Of a stretch of DNA of 64,000 nucleotides, positions 137-42,077 are shown piece after piece. The position numbers and the translations under genes are program-made. This DNA comes from Bilabrum cf. latius (Eukaryota). The stretch lies in assembly GCA_965178125.1 (NCBI GenBank), contig OZ237748.1:744001-808000 (forward strand), written 5' to 3'. Position 1 is the first letter of the stretch; every line of letters begins with the position of its first letter. Below the pieces are notes generated by a model. The model was not told where the DNA came from and made no database searches. It was given only the letters and a program-made list of their open reading frames with translations.

Positions 137-2023
137 ATGTCTGATATGGATAATGTACCTGTAGCAGCACAAAGCAAAGTCGTAGATGACGTCTCAGAAC
201 TACCAGTAACTCAAATAGCTGACGAAAAACTCAACTTTGTGGGTGATAGTCAAGCTATTACTCTAGGAACTACCCTTGGATACTCTTCCAAGTTCCAAAA
301 CCACTATGAACCAGATGGTGGTAACTCTAGCGCAACTAATGCATTTAGAAGTAATTACACTTTTGTCGTGCCATCAAATCAAGGAATGACTGACAGTAAT
401 CCCCGTCTAAGAGTTTCATTTGACGTATACATCTATGATAGTTAGAACAATGGAGCAGTAGCTCAAACTGATATCGTCAATAAGGTAGCCCCTTCTACAT
501 TTATGGTAAATTCAATGATCACAAGTTCCACAGTTAAAATGGGAGACTTATCTCGTAGTTCATCACCTTATCAATTAGTCAATTTAATAGCTAGAAGTCT
601 TGACCGTGCCACTCTAGCACAAATAAGTCCTGTCTTTTAGGCTGATAACACTTGGGAATTTAATACTGCCGCAAATGGTCTTGCTAAGTCTGTCCTTCAA
701 TGGGGTGTAAATGATGATAGTATTATGGAAGCTCGCGGTCCTGGTAAGAATTACCGCGCAACACTTGAAAAAGTGGATGCTAATACTCCAATACCTAATA
801 ATAATGTAACACCAACTCAAGACTATGTCAAATTACATATTGAAATCTCTGAAGCACTTCTTGCACGTCCTTTCCAATATATGATGGGTGGTAATGCTAG
901 ACCTTTTGTTGATCATCCACAATTAAATGTTAATTTACAAATGAGAAATAACTTAATTGATAAGATGTTTAATACTTCAAGTGATTGGAATGGAGACTAT
1001 GCTTTTGCTTTATCCGATTGCTAGATCCATTTTGATGTCTTTACTTATAATACTCATCTTAACTTCTTGAAGAAAGTACCTAAACAAATATTCTACAACT
1101 CTGTTGACTTTGAACTACATGAAGAGCCTAAACTTGATAATCCTATCACTACTAAAGGTGTCCATACTTTTAATAATTATCAACTTTAGACTTGCCCTTC
1201 TTGGTTTGCTGTGTGCTTAGTTGATTCTCAATATGGAGAAGCTAGTGGTACACCTCATAGAACACTTGCCATTAACAATATTAAAGTACAACTTAGGTCT
1301 TAGGGTTCTATTTTAGGAGAACTTACACAAGACGATATCTTTAGACTTAGTGAAAGAAATGGATCAAATAGTGAGTATGCTTCTTTTACTAACTTAGATG
1401 TAACTGTAGGAGGTGCTTCTAAAGTATACGGATCTAATGGCTGGCTCTTATTTAGACTTAGTGATTTAAATACTCCTGAAACTATTCAAAGCAACAGTGC
1501 TGACCCTATTAGTATTCGTGTTCAAGTAGCCTATGACGAACCCCCAACCGCTGCTATGTCTCAAGGATATAAAGCTCAATTATTCTGTGCCTATGACAAG
1601 ATTATCGTGAATACTAGAGGTGCCGCTATTGAATGGCGTGAAGATAGTGCTTCTGTTGACCCTGAGAAAGTGGCTAAACCTTCTAATTATACATTTTCTA
1701 ATATGAACTACTCTAAGAACGTATTAGGTGGAAGACGTCGTAAAGTGATGCAATTCTTTAAGAGAGCCTTTAACAAAGCTAAAGACTTAGGACGTAAAGT
1801 GGTAGACTTTGGAAAGAAAGCTAAAGCTAAATTTGATAAAGTGAAACCAGCTCTTCGTAAAGCAAGACAAGCAGTAAGTGAATACTTACCCGATGAAGTG
1901 AATGACCTAGCTGAACGTGTTGGAGCAGGTCTTTTAACTAGTGGTGGAAGTCTTTTGACCAGTGGAGGTAAGAAATTAACTAAGGCTCAACTTATGAAAC
2001 TTAGAAAGTAGCTCAATATGTGA
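137..2023 (+). CDS. Virophage major capsid protein (mavirus-like, 628 aa with TAG read as sense)
   Basis: ORFs 137, 725 and 1556 are in one frame, interrupted only by TAG (443, 638, 1022, 1187, 1301, 2009), and end at TGA 2021-2023. Motifs PRLRVSF, ARGPGKNY, PSWFAV, VLGG and GGKKLTKAQLMKLR match my recollection of mavirus MCP. Confidence 0.9.
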
Positions 2024-2074
2024 GTCGTAAATTATTAATTAATATTTAAAAGTTATAAATATTGACTAAATTTA

Positions 2075-2210
2075 AAAACTCAATACGGGTACGCGCCCAG
2101 AATTGCGAAAATATATCTTGAATAGCTATAATATTACCGCAATTTGGGGCGGTCATACCTTAAGACTAGTTTAAATATTACGCCAAAAAATATCCACTAT
2201 ATATATAGTT
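2075..2210 (+). repeat. Virophage ~135-bp hairpin/promoter repeat, full copy 1
   Basis: Core CGCCCAGAATTGCG...CCGCAATTTGGGGCG at 2094-2151, followed by ACTATATATATAGT just before ATG 2211. Confidence 0.9.
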
Positions 2211-2633
2211 ATGGCAGCAGTATCACCGTGTGAAGACTTACTTTATATGGAGTATTCATTCTTATTCTTACCACATAGAGAAGACCCAACACTTAAATCT
2301 CAAAAGGTTTACTTAGATGATGAACTTGAAGGAGATCCTGAAGACATTGTAATAGATAAAGATTAGATACAAGTAAATAATAGAGGTCATATAAAGACAT
2401 ATGTAAGTGAAGGAGGCTTTACAAAGTTAAAGGTAGGATAGATAATTGAAGAGATGGAGCAAGAGGTGCGTAATTAGAATGGTATTCATTATGATTGTAT
2501 TTTTTATCATAAAGTTGAACACGACACGAGCACAGATATTTATAAAGTAGTATGGGGGTGGTATCCAGCAGACTTTCCAACAAATGGATGCGACCCTGCT
2601 ATCTTGTATAAGAAACCCCCTAATATGGATTAA
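2211..2633 (+). CDS. Hypothetical virophage protein, 140 aa (3 in-frame TAG)
   Basis: MAAVSPCEDLLYMEY...KKPPNMD-TAA. Absent from the ORF track because of the TAGs. Exactly fills the space between repeat copies 1 and 2. Confidence 0.8.
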
Positions 2634-2638
2634 TTATT

Positions 2639-2775
2639 AAAAACTCAATACGGGTACGCGCCCAGAATTGCGGAAATATATCTTAAATAGCTATAATATT
2701 ACCGCAATTTCGGGCGGTCATATCTTAAGACTAGTTTAAATATTACGCCAAAAAATATTTACTATATATATAGTA
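2639..2775 (+). repeat. Virophage ~135-bp hairpin/promoter repeat, full copy 2
   Basis: Near-identical to 2075-2210; core 2659-2716; abuts ATG 2776. Confidence 0.9.
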
Positions 2776-3165
2776 ATGTCAGATAAAGTAGATTTAAAAA
2801 TATCGTTTTCTCAAAGTCTTGTATCAAGTGTAAACCTTGATTGGGATGGAATAGGTAAGATGTTATGTGGAAAAATCACAAGTAAGATAGAAGGAAATGA
2901 GATAGTGTTAAGACAAATAGGTCAACCGACTCCAAAAGATGGAATGATGGAGTTCTCATACACGACCGACTATAAAGCAAATCAAGTTTTTGAATTACTT
3001 AAAGACTTAACTGATGAAAGACAAGACGCGATTATGGGATACGTTCATTGTAAGTTAAGTGATAGCAACAGGAAAAGAAGACCATTAACTGAAGAAGATC
3101 ACAGACAAATGATTCTGGATGCTATGGATAGGAGTGTTAAAGAATATAAAAAACATATGTCATAA
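2776..3165 (+). CDS. Hypothetical virophage protein, 129 aa
   Basis: Clean ORF ending TAA. N-terminus MSDKVDLKISFSQ resembles MSDKEDIKIELSQ of 3719-4069. Confidence 0.8.
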   Translation: MSDKVDLKISFSQSLVSSVNLDWDGIGKMLCGKITSKIEGNEIVLRQIGQPTPKDGMMEFSYTTDYKANQVFELLKDLTDERQDAIMGYVHCKLSDSNRKRRPLTEEDHRQMILDAMDRSVKEYKKHMS

Positions 3166-3185
3166 TTAAGTCTTAATAATAAAGT

Positions 3186-3212
3186 CTTAATATTAAAGTT
3201 ATTAATATTAAG
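3186..3212 (+). terminator. Perfect AT-rich hairpin just after a stop codon (putative 3'-end signal)
   Basis: CTTAATATTAA-agtta-TTAATATTAAG, an 11-bp stem, 20 nt after TAA 3165. Confidence 0.45.
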
Positions 3213-3468
3213 TCATATCTATGTAATAAAAAAAAATTTCTTTGAGCTAGTAATTATACCGATGGTTTGACTACTTGGCGAAGTCATTCGTAAGTCATTG
3301 TTGTAGCGGAGATGCGAATGTCAACCATGGACCGCTATCCCTATTAAGTCTTACGACTAAGTCTGCTACAACCACTTACGACTACTTCTACAGTATCCAA
3401 ACTCCCTTCAAAGACTTGCAAGACGTGTGCTTTGTCATGAAAATGACTTACAGAACGACTTACGGCGA

Positions 3469-3540
3469 TGTCAGTGGTGGGAATCGAACCCACGACCTTG
3501 ACTTTGTGAAACAATCACGATATCACTAGACCAAGACCAC
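3469..3540 (-). ncRNA. tRNA-like element with A/B-box motifs; not a canonical tRNA
   Basis: The minus strand has A-box-like TGGTCTAGTG, variable loop AGGTC and a perfect T-arm GTGGG-TTCGATT-CCCAC. Acceptor and D stems pair poorly and the anticodon is ambiguous. Confidence 0.55.
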
Positions 3541-3582
3541 AACGCACCAAGAGGTAAAAAATATTATATTCAAATAAATTTA

Positions 3583-3718
3583 AAAATTCAATACACCTAC
3601 GCGCCCAGAATTGCGGAAATATATCTTAAATAGCTATAATATTACCGCAATTTCGGGCGGTCATATCTTAAGACTAGTTTATTACTTTCGCCAAAAAATA
3701 TCCACTATATATATAGTA
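3583..3718 (+). repeat. Virophage ~135-bp hairpin/promoter repeat, full copy 3
   Basis: Core 3602-3659; ends ACTATATATATAGTA before ATG 3719. Confidence 0.9.
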
Positions 3719-4069
3719 ATGTCAGATAAAGAAGATATCAAAATTGAACTATCTCAAAATTTTATAGATGAATGTCTTGTTAAAGGTGTAGGTGTCGATG
3801 ATGTAGTCAGTAGTATAGGTAAAAGTATTGAGAATCACTTTGATAAATATGTATGGATGAAACCAAAAGACAAAGGTGATGGTTATCGTTAGAATGTCTT
3901 TAGTTTTAAATTCGACAATATTATCAAGAAACTCGAAAGTACATTGGAACAGTTAGAATATGAAGAGCAAGTGAAACACGTCTAGGAGCTGATGTATCGT
4001 GTTGAAAGAAGTGAATGTGAAAGGAAGAAGAGAGAAGAAAAAATTAAAAAGACAAAAAGAGACCACTAA
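3719..4069 (+). CDS. Hypothetical virophage protein, 116 aa (2 in-frame TAG), likely paralog of 2776-3165
   Basis: ATG 3719, TAG at 3890 and 3983, TAA 4067-4069. Confidence 0.8.
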
Positions 4070-4131
4070 GTCATTTTATATAAGGTATGTATTATTAAGT
4101 CTTATTAAGTTTTTTATTAATAAGTCATAAT

Positions 4132-6930
4132 TTAATTTTGTTGTTCTAGTGGATCATTATCCTCATCAACAAATAAAGCGGGGTCCAAGTCAACCTCTAT
4201 CTCTTCATCGGGTAATTGAACCTCTTCATCATCAACAAATATATCTACTTCACGAGTCTTTTTCTTGTTAGACCAGATATATTCCATCTCATCGATAATA
4301 TCCTAGTTAAATTCTACATCGTAATTAATTTTCTTTTTCTTACAAGTCATAAATATGTCTTTCCCAAACATTGATTTATATACTTTAAGTATTTCGTAAT
4401 AAAGACCTTTATCAGTGGATAAGTCAACTTTACTTCTTCTTTGGCAGTCATACACTGTCCTATATTCATCTGTTAAGTCTTGGTCTAATACTTTCTTTTT
4501 GATATTATAATCAAGATTAGTTCTTTTAAGACCTAAAGTATCAATCATCTTATTAAGTAAGACTAATTTTCTAGAACTAGACTTAGCATTGATAATATCA
4601 AACTCGCCTTTATTAATTGCTTTCACAAGTAAGTGTTTATCATCTTGTCTAAAGAATTTATTGAAATTAAATAAATTAGATAACTTACCTTTATTAATAA
4701 AGTACTCTTTGTATTTGTCAATATCACCTTCATCTAAGTCTAAATATTTATTAATCTTCTTGACATTAAGACAATTAATATCAAAATTTTCAAGTTGTTT
4801 TTCTTTAATGGTATCTTTGATTTCTTTATCCTTACATCTGGTGATCTTAACAGATAAATCATAAGACACGTCATAACCGGTATCAATTAACTACTTGATC
4901 ATATGTAATTTAGGGTTTGTCTTATAACAATCTACCTTGTAAAGATAATTACGATATAGTTTCTTGAATATGATTTTAACTTTGCTCATTTCTTCTTCTA
5001 CTTTGTCTTCTACTTCTACCTCGTTGAAGTCGGGATATGTATCACTGACAAATTTAACTAATTCTTCGTAGTCTTTTAAAGAGGTAGCCATAAAAGATTT
5101 AACTTGTGAAAGACTTTCATATGTGCTAGATCGTCCTTTCTAGTAATCAAAAAATATAGTGATATGTGATGGGTTTCTACATCTGTTAAGCTATTGAACC
5201 ATTTGGGGAGGTGTGATAGTATGACCTTTGAAATAACCAAAGACTGGTCTAGTCATAGTGCTATCTATCCCGTAAATGACTTTAGGTGAGAAGATAATGA
5301 TATCAAACATATCCATATCATAGTCTTTGTCTTCGCTTTCTGCTGTAAGTATTAAGATTTTATTTAATTTCTTATCTTTCTCGTTATCTATAATTTTAAG
5401 ACTAATTAACTCATTGATTATATCAGCTTTTGTCTTACTATCACTAGCAAGCATAAATTTCTTGTGTTTCATTAACTCATCTCTAAAAGTCTGTTCGTCA
5501 TTAACAAATACAGTTTTGGTGCCCTTGAACCTGTTTCTGTCATTCCTAATATATTGATAATCTAATTTTAATAATTCTAAGAAATATAGAGCATCTTGAG
5601 ATAAGTCAGCATCTGCTACTATGAACTACTTACAAGTGGTAAGAGCACGAATAAGAGTAATGAAACTCATTGGTCGCCTACCATATAAAGTCGTAGAACT
5701 TAAACAGTGTTCTAAGATACTATTAAACTCATCTAAAAAGACAATATAATCCTTAAAGTTATAATTGCTAAGACTAACAATACTTTCAGGAGTAATAACA
5801 ATACTATCACCCTATTTGTATTTATGGTCTTGATAGAATTTAGTTGATTTTGGAAGACTACGCATCTATTGCTTACCTAATAAAATACGACTAACAACTG
5901 ATAAAAAGCTGTCATCTACTCTATTAAATAAATCATTAGCAGCAGTTGTCTTTCCAGAACCAGCCCCCGACTTAACGGCATAGTTGATACCTTTCTTAAA
6001 GAATTTAATATAACGACCTTTGTCGTCAGCAGTCAAATATCTACGGTCAATCTTCTAATTGACTTTCTTGACTACTTTATTCTTGAATATCTTGTATCGA
6101 TAATATAGGCTAAGTCGTTTCTTTTCACTATCTAACTAATTAAAGAACCATTCAACACATTGAAAAGTGGAATTTTCTAATAATCGAGTAAAAATTATCT
6201 TGTTCTTAGTCGACTAATAGCTTTCTACGTCTTGTTTGCTCCATTCATCAAATATATCATATACCTTATTACCATCTACTGGATTTAAGTATTTAGCGAT
6301 ATAACTTGTAGCTCTACAAACTAGATGCCAGTTATATGAATTAGAATAATACTCTTTACCTAATTGATATAAGTATTGTTTGTATTCTTCGGGTTTAATC
6401 ATATAACGGTAGTCTTCAGCTGTAAGTTGTGGTGAATAGATATTTTGTAGTATGAACATCTTGACGTCAGTTGGTATTCTTTTCACGGATGTCTTTTGTA
6501 TTAGTTCGTATTTCTTACCGTTGATAGAGCTAGGAGGACACATGATAAAGCTATCATTTGTGATCACATCTATATGTTCTTTTCTATTTACTGACCTCTT
6601 ACTAAACTCTTCTTCATACTTAAAATACAAATGATATCCATTGGGAGACTTGACAGTGTAAGTATTCATCTCTTGAATAAACTTATCAACACTACCATAT
6701 TCCGCAATAAACTTACCATTTTGAAATTCAGTTTTATTTTTCTCTTTTTCACAATCTAAGTCAAGGACAAAGAAACCTGCACGTCTTCCAGTAAGTAATC
6801 CAACATTAAGATTTGACTTTCTGGTGATAAGTTTAGTAGATTCCAAATTCTACCAAGACTTAATAAGTGGTTGTTTAGAGTTGTGAGCTATTGAGAAATA
6901 AACAGGGTTAGATATGTGTTCGGTCGTCAT
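4132..6930 (-). CDS. Prim-Pol primase fused to a UL9/origin-binding-like SF2 helicase, 932 aa
   Basis: One frame with 11 TAG and no TAA/TGA until 4132. Prim-Pol motifs KQPLIKSW, NVGLLTG..GFFVLDLD and KSPNGYHLYF. Helicase motifs KSGAGSGKTT, FLDEFNS, ADADLS, FSPKVIYGID and QMVQxLNRCR. Acidic tail. Confidence 0.88.
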
Positions 6931-6960
6931 TCTAGTATATACTATACTAAAGATAATTTT

Positions 6961-7173
6961 TTAAGTCATTTTCTAGACGCACTATTTTGGCTTAAAGGAT
7001 TGAGATGGATTTTCGCGCACAACTAGAGTATTTTTAAATTTTTCAATTTCTGCTGGGGATTTCCCGATTAGTAAATAACTTATAGTCTCTTGAAACTCTA
7101 TTGGTAAGTCTTGTAATTGATGTATTGGTTTATTGATAACTTGATTATTTGATTTGGTATCTATTAAATCCAT
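6961..7173 (-). CDS. Small hypothetical virophage protein, ~70 aa
   Basis: ORF 7173-6982 extends through two TAG to TAA at 6961. AT-rich leader containing TCTA. Confidence 0.55.
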
Positions 7174-7205
7174 TATTAATAATACTATAATAATAGAATA
7201 TATTT

Positions 7206-7415
7206 TTAAGTCTTATTTAATCCTTCTGTATCTGGTTCATCCTTAACCTGTTTTCTCTTCTAATAGTACCCCTTCCATTTCTCTTGATTCTTTTGGTAAT
7301 ATTTCTATTTAGCTTTTTTAATAGCTTCTTTCTTTTTGGTCTCCTATTCCTTGAGTCTTTGATAATCTTCCATAATGTCTTGAACCTATTTTAATACATC
7401 TTTAATATCTGGCAT
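7206..7415 (-). CDS. Small basic helical virophage protein, 69 aa (4 in-frame TAG)
   Basis: MPDIKDVLKxVQDIMEDYQRLKExETKKKEAIKKAKxKYYQKNQEKWKGYYxKRKQ...-TAA; leader contains TATCTAG. Confidence 0.7.
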
Positions 7416-7504
7416 TACTATAGTAATATACTAGATAAATCTTTAAGTTTTTAAAACTAGAAAATGACTTAAAATAAGTGGTATGAGTTAGTGAATATGT
7501 AAAA

Positions 7505-8690
7505 TTGAATACGGGTGAGCGCCCAGAATTGCAAACATAATTTTCTTGATACTTATATATTTCCGCAATTTGGGGCGGTCATATCTGGAGATACAATTTG
7601 GGGCGGTCATATTTATTATTAGTTATTTTAAAATATCTCGTCAAGTGGTTAAGTCTTTTTGTGATATCCCGTTAAGTGGTCAATAAAATGAACGGTAAGT
7701 CAAAAAAATTAATCAAAATAAAGAAGTAGTTGATTATTAATTATTGAAGACACCTACGCGCCCAGAATTGCGACAATATCTCTTAATATCCTAATATATT
7801 TCCGCAATTTCGGGCCGTCATTTCTGGACATTTAATATAGCACATACTAGAAATATCTTTATTACAAAATTACACCTCTATAAGATAACTATGTCAAAAT
7901 TAACAAAATATAAAACTCAATACACCTACGCGCCCAGAATTGCGACAATATATCTTAATATCCTAATATATTACCGCAATTTCGGGCGCTAGTATTATAC
8001 TATACCATATTTTATTATCCTATATTTTCCATTTAATCTAGTGATTAATCATTTCAAAGTAATACACTTGACATAAACCAGTTCATTGAGTCATTTTAAA
8101 GTCATCGTCAAAACATTTATCATTTTTAAGTTATCCCGCTTTGTATTCCTTTATATCATATACTCAAACAAAGGACTTTAACATATTTAAAGAATTATGA
8201 AAAATAAAAATCAATACACCTACGCGCCCAGAATTGCAGAAATATATCTTGAATAGCTATAATATTACCGCAATTTCGGGCGATAGATAAAAGAATGTAT
8301 TTTTAAGGGGATACCCTTATATTTGAAGTTTTGAAGAGATGACATATAAAAGACTTTATAAAGTGATTAATATCTCCTTCTAGTTATATTTAAATATTCA
8401 ATTATTTAAGTATAGATTGACAAGTAATAAAAAAAGAGATAAATTAAGTTGATATATTAGTTTAGTTTTATTTATTAATTTAAATTTTTCATTGGAAGTA
8501 TTAAAAAGACTTTAATACTTCTGTCAATCTCTTTAAGTATTTATTTAGTTATTTTCTAAAGTGGTAAATGTCAATTGATACTTAAAACCAAATCATAATA
8601 TAAAACTCAATACACCTACGCGCCCAGAATTGCGAACATATATTCTTAAATGACTATATATTTCCGCAATTTCGGGCGGGCATATCCTAA
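7505..8690 (+). repeat. Five further copies of the 58-bp hairpin core in the non-coding terminal arm (probable TIR region)
   Basis: Cores start at ~7520, 7759, 7931, 8225 and 8621, all in the same orientation, separated by unique AT-rich DNA. Confidence 0.88.
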
Positions 8691-8878
8691 GACTTAGGCT
8701 AGGGATTCACTCAACAGATTAAGTAAAGTAAAGGTCTAACAGATAGACATTAACGGCGCGAAGGTATTAAATTAGGTAGATATATGAATAAATAGCTATT
8801 AAATTATTATGTTCAAGTGAAGGACATTATGAAGGACTACGGCTTAAGATGTTGTGAAGTGGTTAATATTGACCTCTT

Positions 8879-8981
8879 ATGTTATCCGCCAAAATGTGTG
8901 TAGTTTTTATATAAGTAAACTCTATTTCTACTATATAGTAGAAATAGAGTTATCATAACTCCACATTTTGGCGGATAACAT
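8879..8981. repeat. Terminal nested palindrome at the virus/host junction
   Basis: Perfect 20-bp arms at 8879-8898 and 8962-8981 enclose a perfect 34-bp palindrome at 8918-8951. Confidence 0.9.
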
Positions 8982-9261
8982 GGGTGGAATGCAGAATCTC
9001 GCCTCTCTGGAGCTTGTCGCCCTCTGCCGGCTTTTTCCTCGCTACCAAGGCGCTGACGTCGCAGGAGTATTTGTGAATTTTGTCATAGTTGAGGTCGATT
9101 CCATCGCCGCTACTAGCGTGCCTGCTGCTGGCGTGGACCGAGGACGACGACGAGATAGAGCCAGCGCTGCGAAGGTGCTGCTGGCCTGTTGCTCGTCGCC
9201 CGTGCACACTGAGCGCCAAACATGCGGCAAGAGCCACCTGCACAGAAATGTATGATCGCAT
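8982..9261 (-). CDS. 5' part of a possible secreted host protein that runs into the virophage end
   Basis: MRSYISVQVALAACLALSVHG resembles a signal peptide. The ORF stops only inside viral DNA. Confidence 0.4.
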
Positions 9262-9848
9262 TCCTACAGATCTGAGGTTGATGCGACCGTAGTATCACTT
9301 CGCGATGCTGCAGTGCGCCGGCGAGGAGACACAGGCCTCGCGATGGGGCCCCGGAGGGGTAGGCGGGGGGGGTAAGGGGCTATACGGAGCAGTGTGGATC
9401 CTACGAGCGCGAGACCCCATATTATTTAGATGCTTTTGGCGATATTTATGACTAATAAGGTTGGATTCGTTGTTGTTGAAAGGACAGTCACAATTATGTG
9501 GGACCTGTGATACTCGAGGTACATTTTTGGCAAGTCGGTCAAAATGGGGTACAGGATTGGCATACAAACGACCAGGAGATAATTCAATTAACGATAAAGC
9601 GGATAGTACGAGCCAGGAGGTGTCTAATGGTGCTGCAGATCAACCTGGAGCGGGCAGTGGCGCTGGTCTAGCAATTTGAGGTAGCAACGATTTGCAGCCG
9701 AAACTCAGATTTTCTGGGCATTGCAAACATATTACAGCAGTATTTGAAATCAAGTAAATGGTACGAATCTGTAGAATTATTGTTGAATGGATGCATACTG
9801 GGCGAAAACAGAGGGGGGGTCGCTCTTGAGCCGCCCACCCCCGGGACT

Positions 9849-12156
9849 ATGTCAGACCAAGACGACATCGGTGGCACTGCTGGCAGCAGCGATCTCGAGG
9901 GCATCCCGGCCGCCGGTGGAGTGGGGGGCATGGACGAGGAGGAGATGAACGGCCACCTGGATGTGGGGGCGCTATCGCCCGAGGAGCCTGATACTGGGCT
10001 CATAACTTATGTCATTAGTATGCGAGGTCGAGTGATAGAGGCAGGGCCGGCCAAGCGGCGCCCCGGCCGCGCGTCTGTCTTTGCTGCCGGCCAGCTGCCC
10101 GACTCTGCCTCGATGGCCGCAATCGAGGCCGGGCGTATCCCTCCACTGAATCTGCCAGCGGGCAAGCAGGGGACACTGCAAGGGGTAAACGGATTCGTGT
10201 TCGCGGTAAACTTCGCACCGCAAGATTCCGCTGGACCCCTCGGCGAGTACGTTGGGTCTGTCAGTGAGTATCGCAGCGATCCTTACGGCGATTCGTACGG
10301 TGGCTCTTACAGAAGGTCTCGCGGACTAATACGGACTGAGTCTGCGGGGACATCTATTGACCAATCGCCGGTGCCGCTGGCGCTAAAAGGGTTGCTTCCG
10401 TTTGTACAGGGCAACTCGTACTACACGAACCGTTTGTTCGAGTAGCACCGTGAGGAGTGGAGGGTGCCTCAGGTGGTGGGCGGGCACAGGAACATCGTGC
10501 CCGTTAGACACGCATTCTTCGGGTCATCCATGCTGTTGCTGCCTTGGGTGCCCACAGTATTTGTGCAGGAAGGCCAGATCGGAAGGCGCACCACCTGGCT
10601 TGCCATGCCCCTGTACCCCACGAGCCTGCGATCGGCTGCAGGGGACGTGCCTTGCACGGGGCCCAGGGAGGCGGCGCTGTGGCTGCTGCAGGCACTCGAG
10701 GCGATCCAGCACATGCAGACGAGGGGGGCGGTGCACCGGGACATCAAGTCAGACAATTTGTTCCTGGCTGGGGGTGGTCGGCTGGTGCTTGGCGATTTTG
10801 GGGCGGGCTGTCTGCTCTTCCACGGGGGCAGGGCAGCTGACCTGGAGGTGGAGTTCCAGGAGAGGCAGCGGCAGCAGGCGCAGGAGCATGCGGCCGCCAC
10901 AGGTGCAGGTGCAGGTGCAGCTGACCCTGAGATGGGAGCAGCAAATGCAGCAGCAGGGGGCAATGAGGAAGAGGAAGAGGAAGAGGAAGAGGAAGAGGAA
11001 GAGGAAGAGGAAGAGGAAGAGGAAGAGGAAGAGGAAGAGGAAGAGGAAGAGGAAGAGGAAGAGGAAGAGGAAGAGGAAGAGGAAGAGGAAGAGGAAGAGG
11101 AAGAGGAAGAGGAAGAGGAAGAGGAAGAGGAAGAGGAAGAGGAAGAGGAAGAAGAGGAGTGAAATGAAGAAGACGAAGAGGAAGAGGAAGAAGAGTAGGA
11201 AGAGGGAGAAGAAGTGGAGGAAGAAGAGTAGGAAGCTGGCGAGATGCAGATCGTGCCCGGGGAGGCATTCGAGCAGGCAAGGGAGGGATCCAAACACGAA
11301 CCATTCAAAATTGCGTCAGTACACCAAGGTGGTACAGACGATAGCCGATCCCCCGAACTTGATGCTATGGCTAGGAAGAAGGTCACAAAGGACTCGAGAG
11401 GCACGCCGCTCGAGACACTAGCCCAGGCCTACGAGATGTCCGATGCGTGGGCCGCGGCCAAGACCGTGTGGGAGCTGGTTGCGCAAGGGAATGCAGCTGC
11501 GTCTGCCCTCCCCGGCAACGACAGGCTGTACAAGGACTCTGCCATCCCGAGGCTTCCCCAGGCCGGCCGGGAGCTGGAGGCGATCCTGAGAGGGCTGCTG
11601 CAGTCATTGCCCAGCAAGCGGCTGCGGCCCGAGAGTGCCATTGCCGCCCTGCGAGCCCTGTTGTACGGGCCCGGGAGCTGGGAGCAGGTGCAGCGGGCGG
11701 CTGGGGAGGGTGAGGCTGCGAGCGGTGGGATGATGGGCGGGTCCAGCGGTGGCAGTGCTGGAGCTGCTTCGGGGGCTGGGGCGGGGAATGCTGCGTCAGC
11801 GACAGCTGCAGGTGCTGGTGGATCTGGTCTGGTGGAGCTGGTCCGGGGGCAGCTGTGGGAGTGCGCGGCTGTAGACACGGGGCGCAGGGGGGTTGGAGGG
11901 CGTGCCTGCCGCCGGTCTATCTTGGGGCCTGGCCGGGCCTGCTCCCATGGTGCGGCTGCCGATCGGGGAGGAGGCGTATGGGGCGTTCGGGTGGGGTGAG
12001 CGGCGGTGTGTCCCAGGAGAGGCGAGCCTGTGGGACCGGTTTCTGCGGCGAGAGGTGCTGCTGCGGGGGGACGGGGCGGATGGATCTGTGGCTTGCATGA
12101 CCAAGGACTGCGGGGAGCTGGTGGAGGCGTTGAGGAGGTTTGGGCAAGGGGATTGA
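9849..12156 (+). pseudogene. PINK1-like Ser/Thr kinase with poly-Glu insert; disrupted by an in-frame TGA at 11160 and a +1 frameshift at ~11893 (or assembly errors)
   Basis: LALK, HRNIV, HRDIKSDN, GDFG, RSPEL and SDAWA motifs. TAG 10443 links ORFs 9744 and 10464 in frame. The frameshift is seen against the paralog at ~15305. Confidence 0.7.
10965..11159 (+). repeat. (GAGGAA)n coding microsatellite (poly-Glu)
   Basis: About 195 bp of nearly pure GAGGAA. Confidence 0.95.
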
Positions 12157-13211
12157 TCATAGAGTTTTCCATTCAGTGAATCTTTGCGATGCTGCTCACC
12201 CAGTGCACCATCACTCGTTTCGCCATCGCCTTCATCCTTCTCTCCCGTCATGACCGGCATATACGACTATACTCGTATTTGAGGGGCTAGGTTGCCAAAG
12301 GCTTAGGCGCTTTGTACCCTACATCCGTGGGGGGATATATCCTGGATGCTGCTGTTGCGCTGCTGCTGCGTGCGTGCATGCGTCCAAAAATCACAATTTC
12401 CTGCCCCCCCGCGGACCCACTCGGCTTCACCCCGAACGACTGTTTCTTTAACGGTCCACCTGAATGCGGTATTCCTCTGACACTACGAATGTTCTCACTA
12501 CTTTCCCAATGCCCGCGATTGGCCTCGTCGCCACATGGCTTCCTGTTCCTGTTCCCCGCCCTAGGGACTGTGTGCTTTGCTCCCTGTATTGCCACCTTGT
12601 CCCTATCCTTTCAGCTTGCATGCGCCGGTCATGGCAGACCTGCTGTTGGCCCTCTGCGCGCTGCTGGCCATGCATCCAGCTGCCACTCGCGTCTCCCTCG
12701 TGTCTTGCACCTAAAGCCCCATTCCTCCCGTTATGTTCTCCCTGTTGACACCACACTATCGTCGCCTGTGCCGGTGTTCCCTCTGTTCCTCTCCACCTCC
12801 TGTCCTCCTGCGCCCGCCTCGTCTTCCGGCTCACCTCTGCTCCCCGTCGCTTCGATCCTGATGTCCGAGTACAAATGACAAAATCGGATGGTACTTGTCA
12901 CACCACCACGAATTGGCCACCTTGGATCTTGCACATTAAGGTACATTTCGCTTCAAGCGAAGTCTCTCAGGTGAGTTTATGTACAAGTGATGATATCTTT
13001 GCAGCACTAAGCCGCTTTATTGCCCGATTGCCCGACAGCGCCACCCCGTCCATGGACATGCCTGCACAGTGTACACTGCTGTGCACAGTGTGCGATTTCA
13101 AGAATGTATAGGTGCGTGGATTCATTACTGTTACCCGACTAGTTAAAGATTGTAACTGTGCATTGCCGGGGCAAGATGATACAATGAGCGATTCGCCAGT
13201 CTGCTGAGCCA

Positions 13212-15569
13212 ATGCTCTGTTTCTCCTGCGGCTCAGGGAATTACCATTTTGCTCCCTATTTCTTCTGCAGAATAGCAGGAATGCATCACGATGATAGATT
13301 CGCTGAAATTGAAGGCGCTACTTGGCCTGCTGTCGGGAAAACTCGAACTCGTTTAGGCAAGATCGTGTGCTGGCGGAGGGCAGCGGCGGCCAAGAGGGAC
13401 GCCGCGATGGTGTTCCAGGCAGCTGCAGAAGGCAGGCCCATGGAGCTTGCAAAGCGATTGAGACTGGGCAAGCTGGCGGGCGCGACGGAAACCAAGGGTG
13501 CGGTGAGCCTACCAGAAGGGCGCAGCTCCATGTGCTCACCATTGGAGGCAGCCCGATTGGGAGGGCATGACGAGTGCGTGAATCTGATGGAGGAGGCCGT
13601 GGCATACGTGCAGCTGGCCCAGAGCACGGGCCGACACCGGGCTGCTCTTCGGGACAGTGAGCTGGATGCATTGTCGGGTGGTGACTGGTTCCGGCATCTG
13701 CGCGGGCGAATGCAATTTGCTGCGGATAGAAGCGGCCGACTCGATATTAGTACGGTGCTGCCGCCCGAGGAGCTGGAGACTGGGCTGAATGGAAGTCAGG
13801 CCCGTGTGATCCAATTCGGGCCTGCCAAGAGGCGCCCCGGCCGCGCGTCTGTCTTGCCTCCCGGCCAGCTGCCTGACTCTGCCTCGATGGCCGCGATCGA
13901 GGCCGGGCGCATCCCTCCGCTGAACCTGCCAGCGGGCAAGCAATGGGAGGGGCAGGGAATCAACAGCTTTGTATTCGCGGTGGAGATGGCGCGGCGCGGG
14001 GTGCGGGGTGCTGGCGGGGCAGGAGCAGAGGGAGGCGCTGGGTCTGGGGATCGATCGCCTATGCGGCTTGCCCTGAAAGGGCTGCTTCCATTCACCGAAG
14101 GGTACTCGCGCTTCAACTTCCAAAGGATATTATTACAGAGGTAGGCGTGGTCTGTCCCGCAGGTGGTGGGCGGGCACAGGAACATCGTGCCACTGCGGCA
14201 TGAGTTCTTTGGGTCCTCCATGCTTGTGCTGCCGTGGCTGGATCCCTCCTTGATGGAATCAGGCTGGGTTGCGAGGAATACAACCTGGCTTGCCATGCCG
14301 CTGTACCCTACAACCCTTAAATCATCATCCAAAGCTATCGCTTGCTCGGGCCCCAGGGAGGCGGCGCTGTGGCTGCTGCAGGCACTCGAGGCGATCCAGC
14401 ACATGCAGACGAGGGGGGTGGTGCACCGTGACATCAAGTCAGACAACTTCTTAATGGCTGGAGATGGGCGACTGGTGCTGACCGAGTTCGAGTCGAGCTG
14501 TTTGCTATTTTACGGGGGCATGACAGAACCGCTAGATCGGCAGTTCCATAGAAGGCACTTGCAGCGGGAGCATGAGCTTGCGGCCGCCAGAGACGGTACG
14601 ACATACGATGGCGAAGATGAAGGCGAAGATGATGACGAAGGATACGAGGACGATGACGAGAAAGAAAATCCCCAGGAGGCATTCGAGCATGCACAAAAGG
14701 GATCGAATCAGTCACCCTTTATGATTCAGGCTATTCAAGGGGGCGGCTCGCTCTTCAGCCGAGCCCCGGAGCTGTCGGCAATGCTTTATCAGAACTTATC
14801 CAAGGACTCGAGAGGCAAGCCGCTCGAGACACTGGCCCAAGCCTACGAGATGTCCGATGCGTGGGCCGCGGCCAAGACCGTGTGGGGGCTGCTGGCGCAA
14901 GGGGATGCAGCTGCGTCTGCCCTCCCCGGCAACGACAGGCTGTACAAGGACTCTGCCATCCCGAGGCTGCCCTACGCTGGCAGGGAGCTGGAGGCGATCC
15001 TGAGGGGGCTGCTGCAGTCGCTGCCCAGCAAGCGGCTGCGGCCCGAGAGAGCCATTGCCGCCCTGCGAGCCCTGCTGTACGGGCCCGGGAGCTGGGAGCA
15101 GGTGCAGCGGGCGGCTGGGGAGGGTGAGGCTGCGAGCGGTGGGATGATGGGCGGGTCCAGTGGTGGAGGCGCTGGGGCTGCTTCGGGGGCGGGGGCGGGG
15201 AATGCTGCGTCAGCGACAGCTGCAGGTGCTGGTGGATCTGGTCTGGTGGAGCTGGTCCGGGGGCAGCTGTGGGAGTGCGCAGCTGTAGACACGGGGCGCA
15301 GGGGGGTGGAGGGCGTGCCTGCCGCCGGTCTATCTTGGGGCCTGGCGGGGCCTGCTCCCATGGTGCGGCTGCCGATCGGGGAGGAGGCGTATGGGGCGTT
15401 CGGGTGGGGTGAGCGGCGGTGTGTCCCAGGAGAGGCGAGCCTGTGGGACCGGTTTCTGCGGCGGGAGGTGCTGCTGCGGGGGGACGGGCCGGATCAGTCT
15501 GCGGCTTGCATGGCCAAGGACTGCGGGGAGCTGGTGGAGGCGTTGAGGAGGTTTGGGCAAGGGGAGTGA
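13212..15569 (+). CDS. Family module fused to a PINK1-like (pseudo)kinase; 5' end uncertain
   Basis: ORFs 13212 and 14163 are joined by TAG 14142. WRRA..AKRDA...GGHDECV module at the N-terminus. HRDIKSDN is present but the DFG region reads TEFE. Confidence 0.78.
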
Positions 15570-15965
15570 GACGGAATGATGATTTATATGCGGCAGTTTG
15601 CTCGCAGCGTGAGGCTGCTGGAGGATGTGAATTCGTGCACCCGGCAGGAGAGTTACAGCGGTTGCATATTCGGGACAAGGCCGAGGAGCTGGCACAGTAA
15701 GGGTAAACGGTCTTGGTATACAGTGCTTCAATTTGCACCTTGGACTGTAGCTTTTGTGTGACACATTTGACTCGGACCCTGCCACCGCCCGGAGAGCCAA
15801 GCACACTAAATTGTTGCAAGAACTGTTAAATTTAGCAATCAAAAGAATCCTAGGTTTCAAAGCAATCGCTTAGTGTTGTATTTGCATCCTAGATCTATTG
15901 TGCCTCTGCACCCCCAAAGTTGTAAAACACCCCCACTCACTATGCAGTGAGATCACACAAAGAAA

Positions 15966-16390
15966 ACTGGCGAACGCTGCCCCTCAGCGCCCGAATAGCA
16001 CGCGGCTTGATTGCCGCTCGAGTCTAATTGTGACCTCTCAACTTCCACATCCGCATGTGGTCGGTGATCCGATCCCCCTGATCCGAGTCACTCGTCACAC
16101 ATGCCCAACCCACACCTGCCCGGCCTGTGCCTCCCCCTTCCTATCCGCCTCATCAACCCAATGACCCCACCGATCATCTTCTCTTCCACCATTTCCTCCC
16201 CCGTTCCGGTGAACCGTCGTCCCCCCCTCCCTTTGCTCTACCCTCCCCCCCTTAGCTGCCCTCTCTCTCTCTCTCTCTCTCTCTCTCGCACTCCTCCGCA
16301 TCGCTACGTCGCATCTGAGCCTGCTCCTCGAGCGGGTCCTGCGCCCACCGAGCGACCTCAATCTCAGAGACCTTGCTGGCCTCACCAACC
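15966..16390 (+). repeat. Dispersed non-coding upstream repeat, copy 1
   Basis: Reverse-complement match to 22041-22579 and partially to 53726-53860; contains a (CT)n tract. Confidence 0.8.
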
Positions 16391-16509
16391 AAGCAAGGGG
16401 GTCGCCGCCTGTGCTACTACCATCTTGTAGGCAGAGGCCCGCACAGAGGTCAAGAAAAACTTGAGTACCTACTCAGTGCATCGGCCCAGGGTCTGCCCCT
16501 CTCTCCCTT

Positions 16510-16908
16510 AGCTGCGAAGGAGTACATCCCCAACCTGCTGGGCCCGCTGGTCGAAGCCGATAAACATTGTAGCCGTTCATTTGGACTATTACTGCGGCGG
16601 CGAAGCCGAAAGTAGCACGTCCGATCCGGTTTGTTTCCCTTAGCATGTTCAAGGACTTACAGGTGGTTCGGTTCAGGCACGCCCACGATTCCCGCAGAGA
16701 TGCTTCGGTGATATTCAAGGCTGCTGCTGAGGGGCGGCCGCTTGAGCTGGCCAAGCGCACCCGGCTGGGCAAGATGGCAGGTGGGCTGCAGAGGAGAGGG
16801 GTAGTCTTGGACGAGGACGGGAGGCGGCGCACCGTCACCGCGCTGGAGGCAGCAAGGCTTGGTGGGCACGCCGAGTGCGTCAGGGTGCTCGAGGAGGCAT
16901 TGTCGTGA
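16510..16908 (+). pseudogene. Truncated duplicate of the last exon of the 17250-19992 gene
   Basis: Near-identical to ~19595-19992 including the 3' flank; frame break around 16600-16645. Confidence 0.65.
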
Positions 16909-17249
16909 ATTGGTGCAGCGAGTGAGTGCACCGGGGCGGTGCCCGAGGAAACACCAAGCCAATCATGAGTGCATGCGACGAGTATTCAGCATCGTCCAAA
17001 CTGCTAGTCGGCGGAAAATGTCGAGTAGCCGGTGATTCTTCAAGCGAACCAATAGTGAACCACGACGAACCCTTAGTGACCGAGGATCGCAAAATTGGCA
17101 AGAACACCCGTAGTTGTACTTCCAGTAGTCAATTGTTATAAATTTATTCTCAGATATTCAATAGTGAAGCTGTGAATCGTTGCTTAAGCACCTCACGTCT
17201 CTAGAAGCACACATAGGATACAGAAGTACGGCCCGGCTGAGCTTTTTCC

Positions 17250-19992
17250 ATGAAGAAGGCTATAAGGGATGTATTTGCCCTGGCCAGATCTGGAGAAAGT
17301 GAAAAACTTAGCGAATTACTAGCATTCCACCCCATTGGAACTCGCAAACAAGTAGTAAAGTCAAGGCAGAAGCTGCCATTGCATTGGCTACGTGGATCCG
17401 AATCTGCGGTAAGATGCCGGCAGCGCACCCCATGGTCCTAGTATTAATTGGCAAAGATATTCTTTACTAAACTTTATAACGGCGGTGCAGTCCATGTCAA
17501 CTCCGCTTCACGCTGCGGCTGCGGGCGGGTTTTCGGCGGCCTGCTAGCTGCTGCTTGAGAACGGCGCGAATCCATCCGCCAAGAACAGAGTGAGGCTGCC
17601 ATTCAGGCATTCGCGGGAGGCAAATCGTTTAGCAAAGTGGTTTGTAAGGTATCTTTGTATTCTAAACTGTGCGGTGTAGGTGACGCTTTCACGACGGCAG
17701 TACATGCGCGAGGTTCACCTGTAGTCATACTCCGCAGAGATACGACATGCCGCTGCACTACGCCGCTCGTGCAGGGAATGAGGCAGTAAAGGTCATTGAA
17801 ATGCTCCTAATGGCAGATGCAGACCACATCAATGACCCCAACATCGTAAGACTGTTGGTTCAATGAGCGGTGCCAGCCATGCAGTGCGCTGCACACTATG
17901 TCCCATCTCGCAACAACACTACGGTTGTCACAGAATCAGCTTTCATGCATTGTAGGAAGGTATTCCTCCTATCTGCATGGCGGCCTCGGTGAACTCCGAT
18001 GCCTGCATCGCGCTGCTCAGGCACGGTGCCTCGCCGAATCCCCCTACTCTTCTCGGCACGGTGAGAGCCAATTGGTCGTTGCTATACCGGGTTGCCTGCA
18101 TGGTTGCATAGTCTAGCAAGCGTTGTCATCTTGTGAGCAAGCTGTGCAAATAACGATTGGTGTCGGTGCTCGCTTTGCAGCATGTACCGCCCCTGGTAGC
18201 GGCAGCGCGTAGGAGGGACATTAGGCTAATGCAGGCGCTGCTCGACCACGGAGCCGACCCCAATGCTGTCGTACAGGTGAGCAATGGATGCAGAAAGTGC
18301 GGCCCAATGCTGCACAGTAGTCGCTATAGGTTATCCCTTGTGATTGAACAAAGATCATTCGAATCCTGTCAACTGCATCTTGTATTTGCAGTTGTCCCAT
18401 GCATTCCTGCCTGGCAAGACTGCCCGGAAAGCGATCCGAGAGGCATCTGCACACGTGCTTGCCAGACTGGGATGTGTTCGGGGACTTGAAATATTAGTTG
18501 AGGCGAAGGCTAACTTGGACATACAATCGATGGTGAGTGCGCGCGGCCCACGAGTACGGCGCCGCGACCTCGTGAACTGGACACCCGTAACCACGCGTCG
18601 TATTAAACTTGCGTGCATCTTCCAGTAGATGAAACGTAGCGCCGGCTTCTTCATATTGATTCTTGCTCTATTGTGCAGGCGCGAAAAACTCCATTGCACC
18701 TAGCTGCTGCGGAGGGTCACAGCCAGTGCGTCAAGCTGCTAGCTCAAAGCGGTGCCAATTTGGAGCTGAGAGACTGTGTGAGATTTTGATATGAATCTGG
18801 TGGATCTGTGTTCTGATTCTAGCCAGGCCTCTTTTCTTATCCTGGCCTTGGACGCACATATTTGTGCCCGATACGTCTGAATCATACTTGCCCTGGTGCA
18901 CACCAGCCTTGGTCGAGGGCGACTCGATTAAGCATCGATGCTTAACGATGCTTTCGGCCATTAGATCGATGTGTTTTGTCAGCGTGATGCGCTATTCGAA
19001 TGGTATTTTCGGTGGTGGCTCTTGCTCGTCCATTTTCTGTCGCAGTTCGGCCACACACCTCTTGGAATAGCTGCAGTGAAGAAGAGGGCACAAATGTGTG
19101 CGGGCCTGTTGAGTGCTGGTTCCAGCATCGATGCTTGTCGCCACCGCTACCGGGTGAGCACGGGTATGCCGGGCCCATACGGATCTGGGGAAATGACCTA
19201 GGTCCGGATCGCAAGCTGGTCGCAGCGCGAGAGATCTCACAGCGGACGCCATCAATCTGGGATACGTGCACACCAATTTCGTTGTACGATTGTTACGGTA
19301 TGCTCACTTCCCTATTTTGCAGTAGTACACCCGAGTTCTAGTCGGAGGATAGCTTCTGCGCCGGGACAACCTTGCAGTCGCTGCTGTTCTCCGCAACGTG
19401 CAAGACAACTTTGACCCGGACTCAGAGGTGAGATGTTTGTGAAATATATTGACCTGCTCCACAGAAAGCGCCAAGAGTCGCGGATTGTCTACATTTCCTA
19501 GTGTTTGCTCACGTCACACCATTCCGTCACATAGATTCCCTGTCTCCATCTGCCTCTCTTTCTTGGGCACAGGACAACTAGGCAATGCTGCTTGCTGCAA
19601 AAGAGAACATACCCGACCTGCTGGACCCGCTGGTTGAAGCCGCAGGCCGCCGCATCCCAACCATCTTGGCGTTCGCATCGTGTGCGGAACCAGCGGTGGC
19701 AGGCGAGATACACCAGTTGCTTCCCCACATATTCCGAAGCGTGCAGGTGGTTCGGTTCAGGCACGCCCACGATTCCCGCAGAGATGCTTCGATGATATTC
19801 AAGGCTGCTGCTGAGGGGCGGCCGCTTGAGCTGGGCAAGCGCGTCCGGCTGGGCAAGATGGCAGGTGGGCTGCAGAGGAGAGGGGTAGTCTTGGATGAGG
19901 ACGGGAAGCGGCGCACCGTCACCGCGCTGGAGGCAGCCAGGCTTGGTGGGCACCCCGAGTGCGTCAGGGTGCTCGAGGAGGCATTGTCGTGA
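17250..19992 (+). CDS. Multi-exon ankyrin-repeat protein with conserved C-terminal module
   Basis: GT-AG-bounded ankyrin exons, e.g. 17491-17589 (STPLHAAAAGG...LLENGANP, with an in-frame TAG). Last exon RFRHA..RRDA...GGHPECV-TGA. Confidence 0.8.
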
Positions 19993-20175
19993 ATTGGTGC
20001 AGCGAGTGAGTGCACCGGGGCGGTGCCCGAGGAGGGCTTGCGTGTAGATTTGCGACAGGCATGCAAGTGGAGCAATAACAAGCAAAAAAAAAAATGTTTT
20101 AATCGTTAAGCGTGGCGGTTACAGGTAGTTGTTTGCTGCATGTACAGGAAGATGGATAGACTTCTGAGAGTATGC

Positions 20176-21737
20176 TTACCTGGCTGCATCCTCAAGCAAT
20201 CTCACGCAGTCATCGTGGCCACCCAACACTGCGGCATCAATGGGGCTCCGCATTACACCATTGCGCATACGGGAGCGCATGGTGAGGCAGCCTGCTCTCT
20301 TGCCCAGCCTGAGCCTCCTGGCCAGCTCCAGTGGCCTGCCCTCAGCGGCTGCCAAAAACACAAGTGCCGCATCACGACGCGCTTCGTATGCCATCCGAAA
20401 ACGAAGGATTGGGAGTCTCATGACTCGGCACCTCTTCCATTGCTCTAGAAATTCGACACACTTGTCAATGTCTTCAAATGCTCCGCCAAACTCGATCCCT
20501 GACGGCGACTTTGCAACATCCAGCGGAGTGCGCCCGGTCTGCGTTGTCCGGATAGCAGCAGTTAAGCAAAATATGAAAGGCGACGCTGGCAGTATCGATC
20601 ACTGGAACCGCAAGTTTGCAGTGCAACTTTCAACCGTCTGACATCATAACCTGTATCTAGCTGTGCTCCTGCCCTGCTCAGCACTCTCAAGCAGTCGTAC
20701 CTAGCGTAGTCCGCGGCGCAGTGGGCAAGGGTGTAACCTGACTGCGACACAGTTTAGTGGAACATCAAACTAGAGGCGCTACCGTGTGTTTGGACTTAAG
20801 GCATGCGGTATTTTCATGATGACTGAGTCTGCCATTACAACCATCACATACAGCATGTCTCCCGCAGGGATCGACGCCCCAATCTAGGAGGAACTATAAT
20901 GCCTTGTCGTAGCCCTGGGTAGCCGCCAGCATCGCTGCAGTGGTACCTCTCTGCGGATCCAGCGCAGGAAAACACCAAAACCACACGAATTGACAAAATT
21001 GCTGCGCAAAGTGCAAGGATACTAACTTAGCTATGATTTAAGTAGGTACAGTACCTACGTCAAGCAGCCTCACGTTGCTCGTCCGATTCAAATCCACCCC
21101 ATGGTCTGCCAAAGACTTGAGGCAAGCTACACTACCTGTTCGAGCTGCGAGGTGTACCGCAAGCAAGCCTTCCTGCGTGTATGGAACACAAGTCTACACA
21201 GGTTATCGACAGCATGTAGCAGTAGTTCTAGACGATTCAGCCAGTGTTTGTCCCTCATTTGCGCAATTAAGCTTTTAAAACCCAGCAAACGCATGCAAAC
21301 ATCGATTTATTTTCGTGGCAAACTACGGTATGCTCCATCCTGGAGAGCTCACCCTGTCAGTTGCTTCTGCATCAGCGCCCTCGCGAAGAAGCACGTTCAA
21401 GCATAGCGACCTGCCGTGGATTGCCGCGAGCAGCAGAGGTGTACGTCCTTCCTGTACTTTTAAAATATATAAAAAGTGTGTGTAGCTGGGTAGACGGAGC
21501 ATCCATAGCAAAATAATACTAGTTTACACGCCGAAGCAAGATGCGGCAAGCCATTCGTGTGGTGCAGTCAAAGTTGGACAGACTCAGTAGTCAAGTCCTC
21601 CTTGTAAACTTCATCAAAAACTTTGGAAGATCCTTTTTACTTACCAAGTCGTGTTCTTCCATATCAAGGCCATCCCGAATTCCCTAAATAAGACTTTTAG
21701 TCTTGCCCCTCCTAACATACTTGCATAGCTCCCTCAT
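20176..21737 (-). CDS. Multi-exon ankyrin-repeat protein with conserved C-terminal module
   Basis: Exons MRELCKYVRRGK.., EGRTPLLLAAIHG.., GTTAAMLAATQG.., GYTLAHCAA..; module ends in TAA. Confidence 0.78.
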
Positions 21738-22040
21738 TGAAACAAAAAATCAATTATCTGTCAGCTTAGGATAGGAGTACCAAAACATGTATTGGGTATA
21801 CAAGTGAGATTATCAGGCGAATAAAGTTCAACTAACAAACGAACGAGCGAATTCAACGTCTGTGTTGCTGGCGTACAGTGCGCTGCAGTTGCAGAATCTA
21901 GATCTACACATTTTGCTGCCTTGCCCCCACCCACCTCGAGGCATGCCTGCTGTCTTACTATATGTATATCTATGATAATGGAAGTACATCTTTACTTGGT
22001 AAAGCAAACCCAACCAATGCTAGTCGTATTGGCCATATAT

Positions 22041-22579: not shown

Positions 22580-22731
22580 CTTTCGCACGTGTCCTCCTGT
22601 GCGGACCTGAGGCCGTCACTGTCTTCCCCCGAACACTAACTCGTACTGGCACCCGATATAGTTTTGTCAACCGTGATTTCCCCCGAGCTAGCATGACAAT
22701 GCACTGCACACCAATCCAAAGTAGACCCCGC

Positions 22732-41798: not shown

Positions 41799-41810
41799 GA
41801 GACCACAACA

Positions 41811-42071: not shown

Positions 42072-42077
42072 GAAAGA

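Follow-up and report, generated by a model that had tools for sequence, protein, structure and literature searches.

The stretch of 64,000 nt analysed here (the window) belongs to the assembly GCA_965178125.1 of Bilabrum cf. latius (contig OZ237748.1, positions 744,001 to 808,000 of the forward strand). It opens with an AT-rich element that carries virophage-type genes and continues into GC-rich DNA. The GC content is 30-36% in the element region and 50-65% from ~8982 onward. The region under study spans positions 137-7415. With the standard genetic code, only short open reading frames (ORFs) are seen in the first 9 kb. ORFs called with TAG as a residue amount to seven, with 2084 codons together (Table 1). 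An initial annotation had described the region as a virophage written in a reassigned genetic code, with TAG as a sense codon that probably stands for glutamine (Gln).

The first gene matches the solved major capsid protein (MCP) of mavirus, 6g45, with an E-value of 1.2e-15 over residues 68-533 (phmmer), and also 6g43. Moreover it reaches 30.4 bits against the Pfam family PF22031 (MCP_V20_C), which is above the gathering cut-off of 27. The long protein of 932 amino acids (aa) carries a Prim-Pol domain at its N-terminus (PF09250, 8.9e-14) and further matches phrog_4913, the herpesvirus origin-binding protein 9hgj (1e-10) and pRN1 ORF904. Its match to CyRepA1 is strong (2e-33) but stays below the family cut-off. 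The five small ORFs are without a convincing family match in Pfam and PHROGs. Likewise no match to a penton, an FtsK/HerA-type packaging ATPase or an adenain-like cysteine protease was obtained from these two collections among the seven ORFs of 137-7415.

Table 1. Features of the window. TAG numbers are codons in frame; the strand is given where one applies.
Feature	Position	Strand	Remarks
Major capsid protein, 628 aa	137..2023	+	6 TAG at residues 103, 168, 296, 351, 389, 625; TGA end
Small ORF, 140 aa	2211..2633	+	3 TAG; TAA end; no known family
Small ORF, 129 aa	2776..3165	+	0 TAG; TAA end; start and upstream region repeated before ORF 3719 (repeat family D3)
Small ORF, 116 aa	3719..4069	+	2 TAG; TAA end; N-terminus paralogous to ORF 2776
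Prim-Pol primase and UL9/CyRepA1-like superfamily 2 (SF2) helicase fusion, 932 aa	4132..6930	-	11 TAG at residues 27, 239, 265, 292, 355, 373, 435, 580, 597, 680, 876; TAA end
Small ORF, 70 aa	6961..7173	-	2 TAG; TAA end
Small lysine-rich ORF, 69 aa	7206..7415	-	4 TAG; TAA end; has YYQK (CAA) and YY(TAG)K
Hairpin unit, ~100 nt, 8 copies	2053-2160, 2618-2725, 3561-3668, 7479-7586, 7718-7825, 7890-7997, 8184-8291, 8580-8687		
AT-rich terminal region without convincing ORF	7416..8981		Five hairpin units; imperfect palindrome at end
GC-rich cellular flank	8982..64000		GC ~50-65%; ORFs also read TAG as sense
Kinase-like ORFs	9480-11159; 13188-15566		
Satellite array, 329-nt unit x 8 copies	27864-30483		2.6 kb; 97% matches
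Satellite array, 128-nt unit x 35 copies	31293-35780		4.5 kb; 87% matches; region of strong AT skew
Reverse transcriptase ORF, 941 aa	36846-39668	-	6 TAG; RVT_1 3.8e-05, below gathering score; RNase H-like stretch by eye
ORF upstream of reverse transcriptase ORF, 720 aa	39672-41831	-	4 TAG; no family
Five tandem paralogs, 430-500 aa	42625-43914, 44860-46206, 47279-48781, 49608-50996, 51360-52694(-)		No Pfam family

Read in these frames, the seven element ORFs contain 28 TAG, no TAA and no TGA in their 2084 codons. The TAGs are spread over six genes (6, 11, 3, 2, 2 and 4), which reproduces exactly the hand count of the initial annotation, and its statement that every gene ends in TAA or TGA was confirmed as well (TAA 6, TGA 1, TAG 0/7). 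At the genes' own out-of-frame rate ~181 TAA and TGA would be expected per 2084 codons, and the probability of finding none is 10 to the power of -82 (log10 P = -82). If the type of stop is drawn by the trinucleotide frequencies of the element, the probability that all 28 are TAG is ~1e-17. Hence the read-through pattern cannot be put down to chance.

The residue behind TAG was evaluated with the helicase gene. A search of the representative library returned 948 homologs at E <= 0.001; the alignment comprises 92 out of 150 listed homologs, mostly those that match in a single long stretch. Three TAG columns are dominated by Gln, namely column 355 (84/92 homologs), column 435 (59/92) and column 580 (89/92), at a background Gln frequency of 2.9% in the alignment. 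Log-odds were summed in the manner of Codetta over those 10 TAG columns in which 20 letters or more are present, using 91 sequences and leaving aside the query and its 87% relative. This tabulation, which the initial annotation had proposed as a check, gives Gln as the sole residue with a positive score (+7.8 bits), followed by Lys with -9.1. The remaining eight helicase TAG columns are variable. Seven of them are richest in K, D/N, K/E, N/E, K, L/I and K/E, and one consists nearly entirely of gaps.

A control was made with the first 40 of 80 helicase relatives from IMG/VR, found on contigs of ~9-26 kb with 23-41% GC. No in-frame stop occurs in 39 of them, a single TAA in one and TAG in none. 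In the IMG/VR relatives, 39/39 have M[VIL]QQ..R.R with both Gln encoded by CAA or CAG; the window has TAG at the second. The helicase clue of the initial annotation, MVQ(TAG)LNRCR, is thus real, and so is its pair of YYQK and YY(TAG)K in the small lysine-rich ORF. Its third clue, KxPxxKxW(Q) in the Prim-Pol domain, turned out to be uninformative: the column of residue 27, where TAG follows W, holds K 32, S 18 and T 9, with Q outside the eight commonest residues. Altogether TAG is most probably a sense codon for Gln.

The pattern is reproducible in public data. The stretch is present in six public runs of two studies, with no RNA run listed for it, and four of the seven listed runs were compared with the window. 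The dominant contigs of the runs X1 and X6 cover all seven genes with 28/28 TAG unchanged; the listed pieces of X3 cover 25/28, likewise unchanged. Over 1-2101, the MCP region, contigs show 4-7 differences from the window, none within a TAG, and an X1 contig over 2125-2666 shows none at all. Run X7 gave matches of 19-36 nt only. The differences considered are those listed, and the 4-8 differences of the long pieces equal the number of rows listed in the respective ranges, so that the list is complete for these pieces; 39 further rows belong to other contigs. In the contigs compared no TAG was seen to differ from the window, as would be expected of errors or independent mutations.

The differences themselves are informative. 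Among the listed coding differences between window and contigs, 16/17 are synonymous in the read-through frames, including 7/7 in the capsid gene and 8/8 in the helicase gene, where they reach codon 915. Some fall downstream of five TAGs (capsid gene) or ten TAGs (helicase gene). Under neutrality at most 0.34 of single changes would be synonymous. The 15/15 synonymous differences of MCP and helicase therefore argue for purifying selection on the full-length frames. At 11 synonymous sites none of the runs has the window's variant as its dominant form. Taken together these data support the view that 137-7415 holds virophage genes in which TAG is a sense codon.

The GC-rich flank shows the same pattern. 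Nine long flank ORFs, among them a kinase-like ORF (Pkinase in Pfam), the reverse transcriptase ORF and the five tandem paralogs, contain 38 TAG, 0 TAA and 0 TGA in frame in 5761 codons, while the other two frames of each ORF hold 20-37 TGA. Twelve flank ORFs were checked for their ends, and all twelve terminate in TGA or TAA. The closest pair of flank paralogs has TAG opposite Gln in 6 columns. TAG in frame in conserved genes together with the absence of TAA and TGA, the pattern of NCBI table 15, is thus found in element and flank alike. This supports a flank written in the same code as the element, with TAG as sense, and the proposal of the initial annotation that the virus shares a variant code with its host fits these numbers well.

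The flank is further characterised by a retroelement, with RVT_1 and RNase H-like parts, and by two satellite arrays, which argue for a cellular chromosome as its probable origin. The five tandem paralogs have a C-terminal block in common (WRRA.EA.RDA..VF.AA..GRP.EL.KRL.LGK.AGG ... AARLGGH.EC). The block recurs at 22735-23349(-), where an ankyrin repeat precedes it, and at 13188-13600, the beginning of the second kinase-like ORF. A long run of 9-12-nt periodic repeats at 10874-11281 gives poly-Glu in the frame of the first kinase-like ORF.

The element contains conspicuous repeats. An alignment of the eight hairpin units shows invariant GC-rich inverted arms and a variable AT-rich spacer, so that no covariation is testable. 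Folding of the units as DNA gave -13.9 to -16.3 kcal/mol (z -3.7 to -4.8). The first three copies stop 56 nt upstream of the ATGs of ORFs 2211, 2776 and 3719, and the other five are located in the ORF-poor terminal region. The unit could be a promoter, a terminator, a protein-binding element or an origin. A 187-nt repeat of 80-88% identity (2072-2258, 2637-2823 and 3580-3766) covers the opening codons of three successive small ORFs together with the sequence before each of them, and the proteins of ORFs 2776 and 3719 both begin with MSDK.D.KI..SQ. It looks like a tandem duplication of a cassette. A joint that skips 7578-8218 between two hairpin units is found at element-level depth in three runs; one of its sides comprises just 20 letters.

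Only the right end of the presumed integration, which would be like that of the endogenous mavirus-like elements (EMALEs), lies in view. The terminal imperfect palindrome spans 8879-8981, with perfect 20-nt arms (8879-8898/8962-8981) and an inner perfect palindrome near 8921-8950. It is followed by the sharp GC change at ~8982 and sits exactly at the switch from AT-rich to GC-rich DNA. A single X1 contig extends beyond 8981. Its additional 10 letters mirror 8869-8878 and do not lead into the flank, which may mean that the inverted end is longer or that other copies are joined head to head. Contig depth does not equal copy number and was taken as no more than a hint that the element exists in many copies or as free viral DNA. 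Element contigs of X1 have a depth of ~1225-1296 compared with ~65 for the flank contigs (9183-10473), i.e. ~19x, and the respective values in X3 are ~19 and 4.9, i.e. ~4x.

These observations leave some room for a junction at ~8982 that is an assembly artefact, or for a flank that belongs to a GC-rich giant-virus genome, in which case the element would not reside in a host chromosome. The stretch 8626-9183 is unbridged by the listed contigs, the one contig past 8981 follows the mirror of the palindrome, and element depth is 4-19 times that of the flank. Moreover ankyrin and kinase paralogs are abundant in the flank, and giant viruses have them too. The reverse transcriptase/RNase H-like retroelement and the satellite arrays of 2.6 and 4.5 kb, however, fit a cellular chromosome, and both parts turn up together in runs of two studies. 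We consider an artefact or a viral flank unlikely, and TAG would be sense in both parts regardless.

A second alternative is that UAG is ambiguous, with the context deciding between read-through as Gln and termination, as in some ciliates. What keeps it in consideration is that terminal stops are at hand from 7 element genes and 12 flank ORFs, a small sample, and that the reading comes from sequence alone. Yet 0/19 of these ORFs end in TAG (0/7 in the element, 0/12 in the flank), and with 1.3% of element codons and 15-28% of the Gln-type codons, TAG is used as an ordinary sense codon would be. Ambiguous decoding is hence quite improbable in our view.

Next, the element might be a dead insertion, whose TAGs are nonsense mutations, arisen for example from CAG by cytosine deamination at CWG sites. 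Indeed the element has somewhat fewer CAG and CTG than expected (observed/expected 0.72), and three TAGs stand at ancestral Gln positions. TAG, however, is not enriched (0.92), and CAG persists out of frame, with 32 and 13 in the other two frames of the element genes versus 3 in frame. A CAG-to-TAG mutational sweep by hypermutation was rejected on the same grounds, i.e. CAG is rare in frame only and TAG not enriched overall. Neither TAA, TGA nor a frameshift occurs across the 2084 codons, the flank ORFs have the same TAG pattern, and the differences in MCP and helicase are all synonymous in the read-through frames. The initial annotation had already argued that random decay of AT-rich DNA would yield mostly TAA. 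In our view a dead insertion has very little probability left.

The same is true for a virus that alone is recoded by means of its own suppressor tRNA in a host with the standard code, as with code-15 crAss-like phages. The left part of the element is out of view and could hold such a tRNA, and some virophages carry an ochre-suppressor tRNA (PMC6905037). Against this stand the 38 TAG and 0 TAA/TGA of flank ORFs that include a retrotransposon and a cellular gene family, and the absence of any tRNA found in the 64-kb window; we regard recoding of the virus alone as most improbable. Finally, TAG as sense codon for another residue such as Lys, Glu or Leu, suggested by the variable columns rich in K, D/N or L/I and by some flank paralog columns that pair TAG with E, K or S, is scarcely credible given the conserved columns (Gln 84, 59 and 89 of 92), the negative log-odds of all other residues and the six TAG/Gln pairings in the closest host paralog pair.

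Several points weigh against TAG as Gln codon of an integrated virophage. The eight variable TAG columns of the helicase (out of 11) neither favour nor oppose Gln; among them is column 680, with Leu or Ile in 83/92 homologs. Gln stands at many TAG columns in the MCP relatives P0003 and P0004 and in the helicase relative P0005, which may reflect the code used by the gene caller. Since these are known as proteins only and the codons in their DNA were not seen, they do not count as independent evidence. The window yielded no tRNA of any type and no Rfam match. The capsid gene is the one marker of virophage identity; the window lacks genes for penton, ATPase, protease and integrase. The window start cuts the element, and the genes for penton, ATPase and protease would lie upstream of the MCP; an X1 contig reaches 900 nt beyond the window start. 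The junction is that of the window's own assembly, as 8626-9183 is bridged by no listed public contig. Lastly, translation with UAG as Gln is read from the DNA and from nothing else.

Having weighed these points, we consider it very likely that positions 1 to ~8981 represent the right portion of a virophage of mavirus type, either endogenous or integrated recently, with intact genes, UAG as Gln and UAA and UGA as sole stops. Virophages depend on host ribosomes. The host translation would then decode UAG as Gln, and this is the simplest mechanism because the adjoining GC-rich cellular DNA is in the same code. By analogy with other UAG-reassigned eukaryotes, the host may possess a tRNA-Gln(CUA) along with an eRF1 that has lost the recognition of UAG. 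Using the host ribosomes, the lineage of the virophage would have evolved under the UAG=Gln code for long. CAG-to-TAG changes would be synonymous in this code and could accumulate under AT mutation pressure, which fits the Gln-type codons of the element (CAA 69, TAG 28, CAG 3). CAG makes up 3/72 of CAG and CAA here compared with 19.5% of the Gln codons in the 39 standard-code IMG/VR relatives. The low number of CAG in frame together with 28 TAG thus agrees with TAG having taken the place of CAG under AT pressure.

Given 28 sense TAGs in its genes, those for capsid and replication included, the virophage could presumably not make its capsid and replication proteins in a cell with the standard code. 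As the initial annotation had already supposed, the virophage would thus be restricted to hosts with the UAG=Gln code, and we infer that its helper giant virus must itself cope with this code. One may go further and picture a living system of three partners in the UAG=Gln code, that is, a GC-rich protist (maybe of an undescribed UAG-only lineage), a virophage that still replicates or exists in multiple copies, and an unseen giant virus that avoids TAG or uses it as Gln. The raised depth of the element (~19x and ~4x that of the flank in X1 and X3) and copies that differ by synonymous changes only would fit a replicating or multi-copy virophage. The system as a whole is a tentative idea, which we rate as possible but rather doubtful.

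Variant nuclear codes have been proposed as barriers against viruses. If the three partners exist, the variant code would be a barrier that confines both viruses to the host lineage. A virophage with sense TAGs would be a natural test case for the co-adaptation of virus and host to a code change, and it predicts a giant virus adapted to UAG=Gln that can be searched for. Reassignment of UAG alone to Gln is a rarity among eukaryotes, and the GC-rich flank may stand for a further lineage. In practical terms, gene callers that apply the standard code would break such elements into fragments and annotate them as degraded.

A word-index search of the protein libraries found two MCP relatives only (88% and 86% identity), and a close helicase relative shows 87% identity. 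A scan of viral contigs found no MCP-related DNA; an alignment-based scan of metagenome contigs gave 171 pattern matches, of which 0 were confirmed. The MCP was also compared by tblastn with the 80 helicase-relative loci. Here one weak match was obtained (L005, 20% identity, E 5e-05), and hence the helicase relatives do not place the capsid.

Among known systems, mavirus and the EMALEs of Cafeteria burkhardae are alike in their homologous MCP, in an AT-rich element (here 30-36% GC) beside much GC-richer cellular DNA and in a retroelement nearby. The element described here differs by its genes with presumed TAG=Gln and by the Prim-Pol/UL9-like SF2 helicase, with its right part in view. Mavirus itself has a protein-primed polymerase and an rve integrase. 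The Halocafeteria virophage preprint makes no mention of genetic code, stop codon, TAG or UAG. No literature report of a virophage-type capsid or element with a TAG-only code was found, while the supplements of PMC10120064 and PMC6905037 might list recoded virophage capsids.

Code-15 phages, e.g. crAss-like phages (PMC9523058), are viruses with TAG=Gln too, whereas here the host seemingly has the code as well. A virophage with an ochre-suppressor tRNA has been described and hosts with reassigned stops were suggested for it (Paez-Espino et al. 2019, PMC6905037). According to GVMAGs V2, a catalogue of 2026 (PMC13524828), metagenome-assembled genomes (MAGs) of giant viruses annotate better under alternative codes. 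Both hint that the world of giant viruses and virophages reaches hosts with reassigned stops. In contrast to the element, however, they offer gene-calling scores or a single tRNA, with neither tabulated sense TAGs nor a host flank in the parts accessible.

Nuclear codes with UAG as Gln and UAA as stop are known from Iotanema spirale, Hartmannula sinica, Trochilia petrani and Protocruzia tuzeti (PMC11687900; PMC5304391). The codon table is the same as that deduced for the element and the flank ORFs. These organisms are a fornicate and three ciliates, whereas the flank studied here has 50-65% GC, and the accessible text of PMC11687900 never mentions a virus.

The closest precedent comes from Streblomastix strix, whose endogenous Polinton-like viruses (PLVs) use the TAA/TAG=Gln table of their host (Bellas et al. 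2023, PMC10120064). Its authors take the use of the host table as a sign of long association. Viruses of protists in the TAA/TAG=Gln code of their host are thus known already, which somewhat lowers the novelty of our finding; new, as judged from these sources, is a virophage-type capsid under what appears to be a TAG-only code. The Streblomastix PLVs resemble the element in being integrated small DNA viruses of a protist written in a non-standard code of the host. They differ by the reassignment of both TAA and TAG to Gln and by capsids of the Metamonada PLV group, whereas the element appears to have TAG alone reassigned, uses TAA as its main stop and carries a virophage-type capsid.

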